A stretch of 7,827 bases of DNA from a virus (Duplodnaviria; Heunggongvirae; Uroviricota; Caudoviricetes): positions 1 to 7,827 of the IMG/VR virus record IMGVR_UViG_2778261572_000001. One strand, given 5' to 3'. The translations under genes and the position numbers were made by a program. Below the pieces are notes generated by a model. The model ran no database searches, had not been told where the DNA came from, and saw nothing but the letters and a program-made list of their open reading frames with translations. How positions within the stretch are numbered: position 1 is the stretch's first letter; each line of letters starts with the position of its first letter. Positions 4,521 to 6,750 of this stretch are shown one piece after another.

Positions 4521-4739
4521 ATGCCTGCATTTTTCAGAAAAGAATATCCGCGAAAGATCAGAGCAACAGAATTCCTGTTTCTCATTCTGTTTATCGTGTT
4601 GATGATACCGATATCCCCGTTAATTCTGGTATGGGGAATCGGGAAAATAATTGAGCCAGTTATTGAATTGTATAACGACGTGGTATGGGCGTCGTTCAAC
4701 ACATTGCACAATAAAATTAATCCATATAAGGAAAACTGA
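4521..4739 (+). CDS. small single-pass membrane protein, 72 aa
   Basis: A strong RBS (AAGGGGAG) lies 6 nt before ATG 4521. The translation has a basic N-terminus (RKEYPRKIR) followed by one hydrophobic helix (FLFLILFIVLMIPISPLILVWGIG). The region is AT-rich. Confidence 0.55.
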   Translation: MPAFFRKEYPRKIRATEFLFLILFIVLMIPISPLILVWGIGKIIEPVIELYNDVVWASFNTLHNKINPYKEN

Positions 4740-4740
4740 A

Positions 4741-5235
4741 ATGACTTTTACCGAAAAAGAAATGATTAAAGAAATCAAAGAGCGTATCAGTAGCCTGGAC
4801 GTACGAGACGATATTGAGCGCCGGGCTTATGAAATTACATTGGCATCACTGGAAGCAGAGCCGGTAGCATGGAGTGTAGGCAATGCTATAACTCGTGACC
4901 ATGAGAAAGCACAAAAGATTGCCGGGGATACTGGATTTTCAATTATTCCATTATACACTGTCGCAAAAGATGCTCAGAGTGTGACAAATCATTGGATGCC
5001 TGAAGTTGGCGAATATTGCGAAGTATGTACTGATGACTCTGAAATTGAATGGTTAAAAATCAAGGTGGTTGCTATTCATGGCGATGAGGTAGCCGCCATT
5101 GTTTGTGACCCTGACGATTATTATTATGATCGCTTAAAGCTTTTGGGTTGGGAATACGACAATTCTGTTTTTCGCCCTCTATCCGAAGGCGATGTTGAAA
5201 ATAACCCGATAAGTGCGGAGAACACATTACGATGA
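4741..5235 (+). CDS. hypothetical acidic protein, 164 aa
   Basis: ATG 4741 is coupled to the upstream stop (TGAAATG) and preceded by AAGGA about 8 nt upstream. The ATG at 4651 in the ORF track overlaps the previous gene and has no RBS. The C-terminal half is rich in D, E and Y (CDPDDYYYDRLKLLGWEYDNSVF). I recognise no family with confidence. Confidence 0.58.
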   Translation: MTFTEKEMIKEIKERISSLDVRDDIERRAYEITLASLEAEPVAWSVGNAITRDHEKAQKIAGDTGFSIIPLYTVAKDAQSVTNHWMPEVGEYCEVCTDDSEIEWLKIKVVAIHGDEVAAIVCDPDDYYYDRLKLLGWEYDNSVFRPLSEGDVENNPISAENTLR

Positions 5236-5315
5236 CCTGGCCTGAAGCATTCACAACGGTAGGAATTGCGATGGCGGTGGCGCTGGTGGTGTATTCGATT
5301 TGCCGCTGGGGATAA
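5232..5315 (+). CDS. 27-aa hydrophobic peptide (MTWPEAFTTVGIAMAVALVVYSICRWG)
   Basis: Its ATG overlaps the upstream stop as ATGA at 5232-5235, a classic coupling arrangement. The single hydrophobic stretch is long enough for a transmembrane helix. It is absent from the ORF track because it falls below the size cutoff. Confidence 0.35.
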   Translation: MTWPEAFTTVGIAMAVALVVYSICRWG

Positions 5316-5322
5316 AAACGGT

Positions 5323-5350
5323 TTGCGGGAAAAGGAGAGTTAAGTAGAAT
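5323..5350 (+). promoter_or_regulatory. candidate weak promoter for hok/mok mRNA
   Basis: TTGCGG at 5323-5328, a 16-nt spacer, then TAGAAT at 5345-5350. This places the transcript start near 5357, exactly where the 5' element complementary to the 3' end begins (5355-5368). Confidence 0.3.
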
Positions 5351-5409
5351 TGCAGCGGGTGCTTGAGGCTATCTGTCTCAGGCATGAACACCAAAAGGCA
5401 GATAGAGAA

Positions 5410-5480
5410 AAGCCCCAGTTAACATTACGCGTCCTGCAAGACGCTTAACATTAATCTGAGGCTCAATCCATGCTGAACAC
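5410..5480 (-). ncRNA. sok: Sok-like antisense RNA (position inferred)
   Basis: In hok/sok loci the antisense RNA is transcribed opposite the mok translation-initiation region. A candidate minus-strand promoter is present: TTGCCT (complement of 5508-5513), a 17-nt spacer, then TAACCT (complement of 5485-5490). The coordinates are approximate and the ends are not determined. Confidence 0.3.
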
Positions 5481-5682
5481 ATGTAGGTTAGCCTCTTACG
5501 TGCCGAAAGGCAAGGAGAAGCAGGCTATGAAGCAGCAAAAGGCGATGTTAATCGCCCTGATCGTCATCTGTTTAACCGTCATAGTGACGGCACTGGTAAC
5601 GAGGAAAGACCTCTGCGAGGTACGAATCCGAACCGGCCAGACGGAAGTCGCTGTCTTCACAGCTTACGAACCTGAGGAGTAA
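5470..5682 (+). CDS. mok: Mok-like in-frame upstream reading frame of hok, 70 aa
   Basis: ATG 5470 is in frame with hok, with GAGG at 5457-5460 and a 9-nt spacer. The N-terminus MLNTCR... matches the chromosomal MokC-type extension as I recall it. Confidence 0.5.
   Translation: MLNTCRLASYVPKGKEKQAMKQQKAMLIALIVICLTVIVTALVTRKDLCEVRIRTGQTEVAVFTAYEPEE
5527..5682 (+). CDS. hok: Hok/Gef family type I membrane toxin, 51 aa
   Basis: The translation MKQQKAMLIALIVICLTVIVTALVTRKDLCEVRIRTGQTEVAVFTAYEPEE is an unmistakable Hok/Gef family sequence, by my recollection closest to HokD/RelF. AAGGAG at 5512-5517 with a 9-nt spacer precedes ATG 5527. Confidence 0.85.
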   Translation: MKQQKAMLIALIVICLTVIVTALVTRKDLCEVRIRTGQTEVAVFTAYEPEE

Positions 5683-5689
5683 GAGACCT

Positions 5690-5746
5690 GGCGGGGGAGA
5701 AATCTCCCGCCACCTCTGATGTGTCAGGCATCCTCAATGCACCCGC
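5690..5746 (+). other. hok mRNA 3' structure: stem-loop plus fbi-like element complementary to the mRNA 5' end
   Basis: A stem-loop lies at 5690-5711 (GGCGGGGGAG aaat CTCCCGCC). The segment 5732-5746 (CCTCAATGCACCCGC) can pair over 14 bp, with one bulge, to 5355-5368 (GCGGGTGCTTGAGG). This is the long-range tac/fbi interaction characteristic of hok mRNAs. Confidence 0.5.
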
Positions 5747-5806
5747 ACCTGACGCGTTTTGCTGGGTTAATGTTGAGCCATTTGTCATGTTAATAAGGAG
5801 GAGTGA

Positions 5807-6672
5807 ATGAGAACGTATATTAAAGAGTTGAGATGGGGTAATTTTATCCTGCTCAGAGGTGATATGATTTCTAATTATGCTTCAAATTATGGGGAATGGT
5901 GCGAGGTTGAGGTTGACTTATACAAAACATTATTATCAGAAGGTAGTAATGTTATAGAGATAGGTGCAAACATAGGACTGCATACAATTCCATTGTCAAA
6001 AATTTGTGGTAAAGGGAGCATAATATGCTTTGAACCGCAACCACCAATATTTAACATGTTATGTGGTAATTTGGCTATAAATAATATATTGAATGTTATG
6101 CCATATAACAAAGCTGTTGGAGATAGGTGTGGTAGTGTTGTAATTCCTGTGTCTTCGTATGATAAACCATGGAATTATGGTTCATTTTCAATTGAAAAAG
6201 GTTATAATAGTGAAGGTGATTATGATGCCAGCCCAGCCCAGCCCAGCAATGCATTGATCTAATCACAATAGATGCATTTACGGAATCAACGGGCTTGAAA
6301 GTTGATTTTATTAAAATAGATGTTGAAGGCTATGAACTAAACTGTATTCGCGGGGCCGTAAACACAATAAAGGATAACAGACCAGCAATATTTTGTGAAG
6401 CCATTAATAAAAATATTACAAATGAGGTTGTGTCTTTTTTATCAGATCTTGGTTATGAAGGTTTTTGGTTCATTGGAAACAGATATAGACAAGATAACTT
6501 TTTTGCATGTCCTGGACAAATCTATAATAAATTGAGTTATGATGTTAATATTATCTTCATTCATAAAGAGGACAGGGGGGGATCGAGAAATCTATGTAGA
6601 GAAAGGCTTAAAAGATTCGAGTATTTTGAGCAATTACATGAAGGGATAACTGTTCTGAATTCATATCCTTAA
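5807..6672 (+). pseudogene. FkbM-family (Methyltransf_21) SAM-dependent methyltransferase, frameshifted at a pentanucleotide repeat
   Basis: The N-terminal ORF 5807-6262 carries the VIEIGANIG glycine-rich SAM-binding motif and the ICFEP motif. The C-terminal reading frame is open from 6226 to 6672 and carries KVDFIKIDVEGYEL. The two frames meet at the repeat at 6227-6247; deleting one 5-nt unit gives a single ORF of about 286 aa. A strong RBS (AGGAG at 5796-5800) precedes ATG 5807. The region is markedly AT-rich, roughly one-third GC by eye. Confidence 0.7.
6227..6247. repeat. pentanucleotide tandem repeat GCCAG(CCCAG)3C
   Basis: Read directly from the sequence. It forms a GC-rich island inside an AT-rich gene, exactly at the frame break of the methyltransferase. 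Confidence 0.9.
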
Positions 6673-6697
6673 AAATATCTGTATTACTTCATGTTAG

Positions 6698-6750
6698 CAG
6701 ATAAACCAATTCCGAACATTGGGGTTGGTTTATCTGTATTTATGTTTTAT
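6698..6750 (+). terminator. candidate intrinsic terminator after the methyltransferase gene
   Basis: A perfect 12-bp inverted repeat, CAGATAAACCAA (6698-6709) and TTGGTTTATCTG (6725-6736), is followed by a T-rich tract (TATTTATGTTTTAT). Confidence 0.45.

Follow-up and report, generated by a model that had tools for sequence, protein, structure and literature searches.

The stretch of viral DNA analysed here (the window, 7,827 nucleotides) very probably carries a hokD/hokW-type hok/mok/sok type I toxin-antitoxin module of a lambdoid prophage, with a mechanism homologous to those of plasmid R1 hok/sok and of hokW-sokW from Sakai prophage 5 (Sp5). The locus is already known in kind: it is an ordinary, apparently intact hok/mok/sok copy, and it lies in the early-right (nin-like) region of the prophage, co-oriented with the surrounding genes. 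Related loci, annotated hokD or Hok/Gef, occur in 4938 of 5426 complete E. coli genomes, and the region's homology to thousands of hok loci puts its features far beyond chance. Its sequence elements, complementarities, homology and covariation are direct observations.

Elements of the locus

A sequence-only reading had proposed a complete hok/mok/sok locus here, with a 51-aa Hok/Gef toxin at 5527-5682 and an in-frame Mok-like extension from 5470. Every defining element that can be sought in sequence was found at its homologous position (Table 1), including the Pfam HOK_GEF toxin, an RF01794 leader, the tac/fbi pairing, and a sokW-like promoter and Sok, and the element coordinates first proposed agreed with the sequence to within 1-2 nt. 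The open reading frame at the proposed toxin position matches Pfam PF01848 with E = 3e-23 and 81.6 bits (cut-off 22), covering the full 42-position profile, and PHROG 251 with E = 2.8e-33; its 51-aa product is 100% identical to K-12 HokD/RelF. The NCBIfam Hok subfamily model scored 48.5 bits, under its 73-bit cut-off, as expected because that model was trained on another branch. Distant relatives were searched for with a four-sequence Hok alignment as the query.

The predicted Mok extension is likewise present, as a 70-aa frame that continues through hok and has its own Shine-Dalgarno (SD) sequence. The same in-frame arrangement occurs in the annotated mokC of K-12 and in orf74/MokW of VT2-Sakai. 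Judged from the sequences of close relatives, it is one of three arrangements, in which mok is in frame with hok, in the +1 frame, or ends at the hok ATG; the hok start is reached in every case, and the frame itself is not conserved.

The leader scored 118.9 bits against Rfam RF01794 (gathering score 59) over 5357-5532. On the hok-sense strand, this Rfam ‘sok’ model spans the stretch between tac and the hok AUG, and the match supports the leader, not the antisense transcript. A permissive Rfam search of 5200-5900 added only a chance snoRNA match (E = 0.062). RNA spanning 5357-5760 has a minimum free energy (MFE) of -155.9 kcal/mol (z -6.2), and homology among hok loci begins near the -10 element and stops at fbi.

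A strict sigma-70 consensus scan of 5200-5900 called neither the hok nor the sok promoter and no terminator, so both promoters were assigned by homology and from the sokW paper. The hok -10, TAnAAT, is conserved in an alignment of 10 loci, and the promoter scan picked up the equivalent hok site in a Rac-type copy. Downstream of fbi we found no intrinsic terminator on the + strand in a search from 5680 to 6697. Such a terminator is present in Rac442, K-12 hokD and PPompW and absent in Sp5 hokW; as the latter is functional, its absence does not exclude membership of the hok/mok/sok family, but it leaves the full-length 3′ end of the hok mRNA undefined. The proposal that the RNA architecture is intact thus stands for all the other elements and fails for the terminator after fbi.

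Table 1. Coordinates of the hok/mok/sok features in the window.
Feature	Positions	Strand	Basis
Putative weak hok promoter: -35 TTTGCG (5322-5327), 17-nt spacer, -10 TAGAAT (5345-5350)	5322..5350	+	inferred
hok mRNA core, putative +1 G5357 to fbi end	5357..5746	+	RF01794 model start 5357
tac (translational activator element)	5357..5368	+	DNA complementarity reaches 5355; pairs with fbi
Metastable 5′ hairpin of nascent transcript (tac and sequence directly 3′)	5359..5385	+	fold
Predicted Sok antisense RNA, about 73-78 nt	5406..5478	-	fold, sokW homology; ends inferred
ucb / anti-SD (AAGCCCC)	5410..5416	+	pairs mok SD (closed form), tac (open form)
Sok hairpin extension: TTAACATTA (5419-5427), palindrome CGCGTCCTGCAAGACGC (5428-5444), TTAACATTA (5445-5453)	5419..5453	strand-neutral	
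mok Shine-Dalgarno GAGG, 8 nt before ATG 5470	5458..5461	+	sequence; family-conserved as GAGGC
mok ORF, 70 aa, in frame with and through hok	5470..5682	+	ORF list, translation
mok-start hairpin loop CUGAACA (open form), holds YUNR (CUGA)	5473..5479	+	hairpin 5458-5495 in folds
sok promoter: -35 TTGCCT (5508-5513), 17-nt spacer, -10 TAACCT (5485-5490), reverse complements	5485..5513	-	sokW homology
dcb (GCCUC), pairs mok SD in open form	5491..5495	+	folds; Rfam consensus hairpin
hok Shine-Dalgarno AGGAG	5513..5517	+	read from sequence; GGAGAAG invariant in alignment of 10 loci
hok toxin gene, 51 aa and stop	5527..5682	+	Pfam PF01848, PHROG 251
3′ stem-loop, 10 bp, GAAA loop	5689..5712	+	fold
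fbi (fold-back inhibitory element), 49 nt past hok stop codon	5732..5746	+	pairing, covariation

The antisense RNA and the mRNA switch

The predicted Sok RNA consists of a single-stranded 5′ tail over the mok start, a long hairpin and a UUUUCUCU tail, and its minus-strand fold has a free energy of -33.4 kcal/mol (z -5.9). It differs from the Sp5 SokW region by 1 nt, located in the loop, and the Northern probe used for sokW, YO-592, is an exact match to 5449-5478. The sok promoter, TTGCCT-17-TAACCT, is identical to that of sokW; primers YO-597 and YO-422 have perfect matches in the window, and YO-421 marks the -10 bases that were mutated in a promoter-less sokW construct that lost antitoxin activity. 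In Sp5, sokW is transcribed and neutralises HokW in a manner dependent on that -10 element (PMC8621323). The same Sok design, with the promoter in the 5′ part of mok followed by tail, hairpin and U-tail, is present in 31 distinct relatives as well.

The direct repeats and the small palindrome (about 5429-5445) that had been pointed out in the presumed Sok-coding region both lie within this sokW-homologous RNA, with the palindrome at 5428-5444 and a repeat on either side. They make up both arms and the tip of a Sok terminator hairpin that is extended, being ~18 nt longer than that of other branches. The hokD/hokW-type loci of E. coli, Shigella, E. albertii, E. ruysiae and Kluyvera all have this extended hairpin; hokC-, PPompW-, Photorhabdus- and R1-type loci do not.

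The long-range pairing between 5355-5368 and 5732-5746, proposed initially as a tac/fbi helix, held up well. The segment 5355-5368 (GCGGGTGCTTGAGG) is the reverse complement of 5732-5746 (CCTCAATGCACCCGC) over 14 bp with U5738 bulged, and these are the only two sites in the window with this complementarity pattern (0.00 expected, 200 shuffles). With G5357 as the transcription start, by analogy with relatives, the RNA would contain 12 of the 14 pairs; the helix is present in both the MFE and the centroid structures, with a probability of 0.99 in the full-length fold. Across 33 distinct enterobacterial loci the 6-pair inner helix is 93.9% paired, and one of its pairs splits into C-G (18 loci) and U-A (13 loci), while the Photorhabdus clade has GAGA/UCUC for GAGG/CCUC. 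Compensatory changes thus support tac/fbi across the 33 diverse loci. Helix 2 has no single scoring register across clades, because the bulge is exclusive to the hokD/C branch, and per-locus duplexes were used for it. The position of fbi is also similar among relatives, 45-57 nt past the hok stop in most of 55 distinct loci.

All the complementarities needed for the switch (tac, ucb, SD and dcb) are present and agree with the Rfam consensus structure. The metastable hairpin comprises 11 bp (-16.5 kcal/mol, z -4.3) and its role is as given for R1 (PMC9841398). The ucb element is conserved in all 50+ leaders, and both the truncated fold and the Rfam consensus structure show tac paired with 5410-5416. 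Thermodynamic prediction of the effect of removing fbi, comparing the full-length RNA with 5357-5722, gave pairing probabilities that fell from 0.75 to 0.33 for the mok SD with ucb (CCCC), and rose from 0 to 0.48 for tac with ucb (5410-5417) and from 0.00 to 0.45 for the SD with dcb. This ensemble shift is weaker for 5357-5712 than for 5357-5722, and the open form reaches a probability of only 0.15-0.48 in truncated RNAs. The CUGAACA loop has an unpaired probability of 0.43 in the closed form and 0.54-0.70 in the truncated forms, and it is likely the first contact for the Sok 5′ tail. Its YUNR motif presumably has the U-turn role known from R1.

The 3′ stem-loop, placed by the sequence-only reading at 5690-5711, has its core at 5689-5712; extended to 5684-5717 it is predicted at -21 kcal/mol (z -4.8), and it is conserved in the alignment. 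By analogy with R1, for which mutational data show a protective role of the 3′ hairpin (PMC9841398), it probably forms the 3′ end that protects the active mRNA once this has been processed.

Homology with R1 hok/sok and Sp5 hokW-sokW suggests the transcript ends, the processing, the toxicity and the biological role of this copy, and on that model the module would work as follows. A stable hok mRNA would be made from the weak promoter (-10 at 5345-5350), starting near G5357, with tac kept in the local hairpin 5359-5385 during the nascent stage. Once transcribed, fbi (5732-5744) would pair with tac and free the anti-SD AAGCCCC (5410-5416) to sequester the mok SD (5458-5461), leaving an RNA that would not be translated and would escape binding by Sok. 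As the 3′ end is slowly trimmed to the 5689-5712 hairpin, fbi would be lost; tac would then pair with the anti-SD, and the mok start would refold as the hairpin 5458-5495 with its CUGAACA loop exposed. A short, unstable Sok, expressed from the strong convergent promoter TTGCCT-17-TAACCT on the minus strand (~5478 to 5406), would bind this exposed loop through its 5′ tail, blocking mok translation and targeting the duplex for RNase III. When Sok is exhausted, mok would be translated with hok translation coupled to it, and the 51-aa Hok would damage the inner membrane. Hok toxicity, its neutralisation by Sok, 3′ processing of the mRNA and RNase III cleavage of the duplex have been demonstrated in hokW-sokW (PMC8621323) and R1 (PMC9841398), and the mechanism has been described for R1 (PMC9841398).

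Biological role and alternative explanations

The most likely role of the module, by analogy, is that of hokW-sokW: loss of Sok and production of Hok on prophage induction, aiding lysis and phage release. In Sp5, RecA-dependent induction leads to Sok loss and Hok production, and two-fold fewer phages are released when the hokW-sokW locus is missing (PMC8621323). A functional module that instead serves prophage stabilisation, by killing prophage-free cells, or abortive infection is a possible but less favoured alternative. Plasmid hok/sok is classically a post-segregational killing system, and T4 plating is lowered by R1 hok/sok (both as summarised in PMC8621323); in addition, prophages show a roughly four-fold enrichment in hok genes (bioRxiv 10.1101/2025.08.07.668861). 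However, direct experimental work on a near-identical prophage locus is limited to the Sp5 observations, and hok is not enriched beside defence systems (bioRxiv 10.1101/2025.08.07.668861). These roles are not mutually exclusive, and the data from this locus do not tell them apart.

That the locus only looks intact, and is an inert or decaying prophage passenger in which loss of the terminator leaves no defined 3′ end and trimming-dependent activation fails, seems unlikely. The missing terminator is consistent with this view, as is the 3′ flank, which is a diverged form of the small terminator of strain C5. The hok-methyltransferase junction occurs in just one of the 5426 complete E. coli genomes, with the adjoining methyltransferase gene frameshifted in the window, and the chromosomal hokA/B/C loci are reported, in work cited in bioRxiv 10.1101/2025.08.07.668861, not to mediate post-segregational killing. 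Yet Sp5 hokW, which also lacks the terminator, is a working pair for which full-length and shorter hokW RNAs are detectable; all other elements of the window locus are intact, its Hok is identical to HokD, and it is free of the stop codons, frameshifts or IS insertions of the kind that affect K-12 hokC or hokD. These features suggest that the copy is functional rather than decayed, as had been proposed. A further alternative, that the 9-bp repeats and 17-bp palindrome are an insertion footprint, i.e. a target-site duplication round a small mobile or palindromic element that disrupts sok, is highly improbable and was rejected. Chance is an improbable source of exact 9-bp repeats (0.09 expected in the window for TTAACATTA), and the segment does amount to an insertion inside the hairpin loop, 16 nt long in the match to the Rfam model and about 18-26 nt when that consensus and the hokC-, R1- and Photorhabdus-type loci are compared with it. 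But it is conserved in every hokD/hokW-type locus examined, the functional sokW included, it extends the Sok hairpin coaxially (-31 kcal/mol, versus about -21 for short-hairpin relatives), and the divergent copies L039 and L040 keep the pairing through compensatory changes on both arms. A conserved segment that preserves pairing would therefore be at most an ancient expansion fixed in the RNA, not a disruption of sok.

We also rejected, as unsupported, the idea that the 3′ flank (5747-5806) is an inverted hok/sok remnant or a second long-range lock. The flank holds three short colinear complementarities, but its best local alignment was equalled in 22 of 1000 shuffles and in 8 of 174 other segments of the window, and the predicted folding effect reverses with the chosen 3′ end. 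For hypothetical RNAs extended in the 3′ direction, the tac/fbi probability is 0.0 when the RNA ends at 5806 and 0.76 when it ends at 5900, so that the modelled fold is unstable.

With no terminator after fbi, as in Sp5 hokW, and an orientation shared with the early-right operon in which it lies, the locus could be wired for read-through. In this speculative and rather improbable scenario, transcription from a phage early promoter would hit the sok promoter head-on and silence Sok by transcriptional interference, and it would yield 3′-extended hok RNAs in which the added flank (5748-5793) would compete against the tac/fbi lock, tying Hok activation to induction. If true, this would explain the so far unexplained RecA-dependent disappearance of sokW RNA, and it would be a phage-specific trigger, unlike the decay-timer logic of plasmid hok/sok. 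Beyond annotation the locus matters little. What it offers are exact positions for features commonly left out of genome annotation (sok, mok, tac, fbi, ucb and dcb), the recognition of direct repeats and palindrome as the mark of the extended Sok hairpin that belongs to the prophage hokD/hokW branch, a mok frame that is free to vary, and a terminator after fbi that is dispensable in at least one functional relative. The role of prophage hok/sok is only partly settled, and to this the locus adds the speculative read-through idea and no other handle.

Comparison with characterised hok loci

Alignment to known hok loci, suggested at the outset as a check, returned a homologous architecture. Over 5340-5746 the window is 95.3% identical at the DNA level to hokW-sokW (mokW) of Sakai prophage 5/phage VT2-Sakai (Takada et al. 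2021, PMC8621323). The two share the promoter region, tac, leader hairpins, extended Sok hairpin, sok promoter, in-frame 70-aa mok and fbi, and the published hokW and sokW probes and primers find exact matches in the window. Both are lambdoid prophage loci without a terminator after fbi. They differ in the Hok C-terminus (...VFTAYEPEE in the window, ...VFVDYESEK in HokW), in a few leader substitutions that preserve pairing, in the 3′ flank and in the prophage neighbourhood.

K-12 hokD (relF, in the Qin cryptic prophage) encodes the identical Hok peptide and is nearly identical to the window in the coding region, 3′ stem-loop and fbi. It has lost everything 5′ of the hok SD (tac, ucb, mok and sok) and is placed behind relBE, whereas the window has the complete leader; conversely, K-12 hokD has kept the terminator after fbi and the window has not. 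K-12 hokC (gef)/mokC/sokC has the same architecture, tac sequence and in-frame mok, with a Hok that is 82% identical. However, the hokC-type Sok has a short hairpin and a predicted length of about 60 nt, compared with about 73-78 nt in the window, and the sokC -10 is unlike that of the window sok. K-12 hokC also lacks fbi: the alignment stops before it, and IS186A is annotated ~20 nt past the hokC stop.

The reference system, plasmid R1 hok/sok (parB), has the same element order and logic as the window: tac, metastable hairpin, ucb, Sok hairpin, mok SD, mok, the sok promoter inside mok, dcb, hok, 3′ hairpin and fbi. This order is shared even though the R1 and window Hok proteins are only 43% identical, and the R1 tac GGCGCUUGAGG comes with a matching fbi CCUGAAGCGCC, an instance of covariation. 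Compared with the window, R1 has a longer first hairpin, a short Sok hairpin and a terminator after fbi, and it is plasmid-borne, with post-segregational killing proven.

Identity of the hok locus and its prophage setting

The 51-aa ORF that the sequence-only reading had taken for a Hok-family toxin was recovered by the ORF listing; it matches Pfam HOK_GEF (E = 3e-23) and PHROG 251 ('MokW-like host killing') and is 100% identical to K-12 HokD/RelF. Rfam RF01794 matches 5357-5532 with 118.9 bits (gathering score 59). As that model is oriented along the hok-sense strand and extends from tac to the hok AUG, the match is evidence for the mRNA leader rather than for an antisense RNA. Over 5340-5746, identity to the 'gef homolog/MokW' locus of phage VT2-Sakai is 95.3%; that phage locus is hokW-sokW, an experimentally proven type I toxin-antitoxin pair (PMC8621323). 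Pfam, Rfam and this identity bear out the earlier view that the system is of a known type. Each sequence feature named in the sequence-only reading was confirmed, and the hok/mok/sok interpretation is supported. Among 5426 complete E. coli genomes, 4938 carry related loci by megablast (query 5300-5800), annotated hokD or Hok/Gef and numbering two per genome at the median; both the system and this prophage subfamily have been described before and are ubiquitous.

Alignment to characterised loci had been proposed as a check. Across ten other loci (TUM9812, Sp5 hokW, a Rac-type phage, PPompW, PhiR12_3, a P1-like phage, two plasmids, and K-12 hokC and hokD), homology begins near the hok promoter -10 and stops at the final fbi base, beyond which the flank differs in each locus. 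K-12 hokD matches only from the hok SD onwards, having lost the leader that the window has in full. The Mok-like extension reported in the hok frame is a 70-aa ORF, shared in that frame with Sp5, PPompW and hokC. The Rac442 and P1-like copies carry mok in the +1 frame (68 aa), and in TUM9812 and PhiR12_3 mok is 17-19 aa long, its stop coinciding with the hok ATG or falling just short of it. Constant across relatives are an SD and a start codon, 56-58 nt upstream, from which translation runs as far as the hok start, a pattern consistent with translational coupling. Judged from this pattern of conservation, it is evidently the translation of mok, and not the Mok peptide itself, that is under selection.

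Codon 47 of hok (5665-5668, TAC then G) reads as Tyr47, a UAC inside a UACG motif. [quoted passage not shown] Near-identical enterobacterial hok loci also occur on contigs labelled Veillonella, Acinetobacter, Xanthomonas, Ferruginibacter, Streptomyces and Oscillibacter (L021, L031, L038, L073-L075), likely through assembly contamination by E. coli or plasmid DNA.

The window derives from a lambdoid prophage of mosaic, Rac/Stx-like make-up. Every sizeable ORF with a family match in the ORF listing, Pfam and PHROG lies on the + strand; among them are, in order, YdaT-like, DnaT-domain replication protein, DUF1627, Ead/Ea22-like, hok locus, split FkbM methyltransferase, DUF1367 and YbcO/DUF1364. 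The nearest phage records are Rac-like and Stx-converting phages. The whole window was found in none of the complete E. coli genomes, the best match reaching 77% coverage at 97% identity. A record titled 'Actinobacillus phage vB_Apl-pPE4' (PP818812.1) shares 96% identity with 74% of the window, an E. coli-type lambdoid sequence, and the shared part includes the hok locus. Its host label looks doubtful.

Several neighbouring ORFs drew attention. The methyltransferase gene lies in two ORFs in different frames, matching PHROG 8156 (positions 45-116 and 155-210) and Pfam Methyltransf_21, and is probably a frameshifted pseudogene; the E. coli TUM9812 annotation shows the identical split. Directly upstream of the hok promoter is a hydrophobic 27-aa ORF (MTWPEAFTTVGIAMAVALVVYSICRWG) whose start codon overlaps the stop of the preceding ORF (ATGA) and for which PHROG and NCBIfam searches returned no match. 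The Sp5 cloning primer YO-432 includes ATGACCTGGCCTGAAGC, which equals the opening 17 nt of this ORF; the same ORF start thus appears to be present in Sp5. Further upstream, a 72-aa ORF, hydrophobic in its core, hits PHROG 1832 ('released from the phage upon host infection', E = 1.6e-43). ORF 4651-5235, as listed mechanically, overlaps part of it with its 5' end; the true start of 4651-5235 is probably further downstream.

Features of the hok locus and its neighbours (window positions)
Feature	Position	Strand	Detail
72-aa ORF	4521-4739	+	hydrophobic core
Listed ORF	4651-5235	+	
27-aa ORF	5232-5315	+	MTWPEAFTTVGIAMAVALVVYSICRWG
hok promoter -10	5345-5350	+	TAGAAT
tac	5355-5368	+	
Nascent 5' hairpin	5359-5385	+	-16.5 kcal/mol
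Predicted Sok	~5478 to 5406	-	-33.4 kcal/mol, z -5.9
ucb	5410-5416	+	AAGCCCC
Direct repeats	5419-5427, 5445-5453		TTAACATTA
Palindrome	5428-5444		17 nt
mok SD	5458-5461	+	
mok ORF	from 5470	+	70 aa, in frame with hok
sok -10 counterpart	5485-5490	-	reverse complement
dcb	5491-5495	+	GCCUC
hok ORF	5527-5682	+	51 aa
3' hairpin	5689-5712	+	10 bp, GAAA loop; -21 kcal/mol for 5684-5717
fbi	5732-5746	+	
Methyltransferase ORFs	5807-6262, 6295-6672	+	different frames
Terminator-like site	6697-6737	+	first after fbi

The tac/fbi pairing and the predicted switch

The complementarity claimed between the two ends of the transcript is real: tac is the reverse complement of fbi with U5738 bulged, a pattern with no other occurrence in the window and none in 200 shuffles. 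When 5357-5760 is folded, the MFE structure (-155.9 kcal/mol, z -6.2) and the centroid structure alike place the first 12 nt in a helix with 5732-5744, and the partition-function pairing probability is 0.99. The fbi of the window differs from those of its closest relatives solely by U for C at 5738, a change that is neutral for pairing because this base is bulged.

For comparison, 80 Hok-encoding loci were collected, using one genome per species, from Escherichia, Shigella, Kluyvera, Photorhabdus, Pantoea, Citrobacter, Enterobacter, Buttiauxella and others. Of the 55 distinct loci whose tac is recognisable, most have their best duplex of the tac 17-mer with the 130 nt following the stop codon at 45-57 nt past that codon; exceptions include copies with a disrupted 3' end or a best duplex elsewhere. 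The two elements covary, pairing GGGUGCUUGAGG with CCUCAA(C/U)GCACCC in the hokD/W/C branch, GGGCGCUUGAGA with UCUCAAGCGCCC in Photorhabdus and GGCGCUUGAGGC with GCCUGAAGCGCC in the R1-like branch. A MAFFT alignment of 33 distinct tac and fbi pairs shows 93.9% pairing in the inner six-pair helix; one position of that helix is C-G in 18, U-A in 13 and U-G in 1, and the covariation score was reached by 0 of 500 shuffles. The outer half lacks a single scoring register, since the bulge is confined to the hokD/C branch.

In plasmid R1, a metastable 5' hairpin gives way to the tac/fbi lock, in which the ucb anti-SD covers the mok SD, and after 3' trimming tac/ucb and SD/dcb stems form and Sok is able to bind (PMC9841398). 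The window contains all elements required by an R1-type switch, including the 3' stem-loop, which had been placed at 5690-5711. Partition-function predictions for the full-length RNA versus 5357-5722 gave 0.75 versus 0.33 for mok SD with ucb, 0.00 versus 0.48 for tac with ucb, 0.00 versus 0.45 for mok SD with dcb, and 0.43 versus 0.70 for an unpaired CUGAACA loop. The predicted ensemble thus shifts in the direction expected of the switch, with a smaller shift for an RNA ending at 5712. The CUGAACA loop holds CUGA, a YUNR motif, and motifs of this kind are used in R1 for Sok recognition.

The predicted Sok hairpin and its repeats

Predicted Sok begins with a single-stranded 5' tail that is complementary to the mok start, continues into one long hairpin and finishes in a GGGGCUUUUCUCU tail. 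A primer that abolished the sokW promoter places the sokW -10 at TAACCT (PMC8621323), and the window has its counterpart. The direct repeats around a palindrome described by the sequence-only reading are present, with TTAACATTA occurring exactly twice. On the minus strand both copies read UAAUGUUAA and pair with each other, including two G-U pairs, with the palindrome as the tip; the same positions would be C-A mismatches on the hok strand, and the extension thus adds more stability to Sok than to the mRNA. Among 31 distinct predicted Sok regions, those of the hokD/hokW branch are 75-80 nt (about -28 to -32 kcal/mol) and those of the hokC, R1, Photorhabdus and PPompW types are 55-61 nt (about -20 to -24 kcal/mol). 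In the ten-locus alignment, every hokD/hokW-type locus has the repeat-palindrome-repeat segment, and hokC-type and PPompW loci lack it. Divergent copies retain the paired extension via changes on both arms, as in copy L040 (UGAUGUUGAGCGUC...GACGCUCAAUGUU), and the predicted Sok differs from Sp5 SokW by one loop base. Given the branch-wide presence, the changes on both arms and the near-identity to SokW, the repeats are best read as a subfamily trait of the predicted antitoxin hairpin rather than the scar of an insertion or an element in its own right.

The 3' flank and comparison with hokW-sokW

The claim of an intact RNA architecture stands for the switch elements, all of which are present, but not for the 3' end, where an intrinsic terminator is missing. 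Rac442, PPompW, K-12 hokD and many others carry ACCCGCTTCGGCGGGTTTTTT, a clear intrinsic terminator, a few bases after fbi. In the window and TUM9812 this flank is CACCTGACGCGTTTTGCTGG, which a terminator scan of the window did not call and which looks like a degraded form of the small terminator of strain C5. The 3' end of the full-length RNA therefore cannot be inferred for this copy, nor, as a consequence, can its processing kinetics. The junction with the methyltransferase (flank 5747-5806) occurs in 1 of 5426 complete E. coli genomes. Three short segments of this flank are complementary to 5533-5544, 5443-5454 and 5419-5428, a marginal signal (22 of 1000 shuffles, and 8 of the 174 control segments, equalled the best local alignment) whose predicted folding effect varies with the 3' end chosen.

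Genes of the hok family are about four-fold enriched in prophages (bioRxiv 10.1101/2025.08.07.668861), and prophage stabilisation or abortive infection is a possible role for the module. The hok locus points the same way as the early-right operon and has no terminator, so induced read-through could silence the convergent sok promoter, a speculative idea that we consider improbable. Our best guess, by analogy, is a role on prophage induction like that of hokW-sokW, given the near-identical regulatory region; YO-592, YO-597 and YO-422, oligonucleotides published as sokW and hokW probes and primers, match the window exactly. After mitomycin C, sokW RNA is lost and HokW appears in a RecA-dependent manner, about an hour ahead of endolysin, and deletion of hokW-sokW halves phage release (PMC8621323). 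Sp5 hokW likewise has no terminator after fbi, yet it is functional, which makes the missing terminator of the window copy a caveat and not a disqualification.
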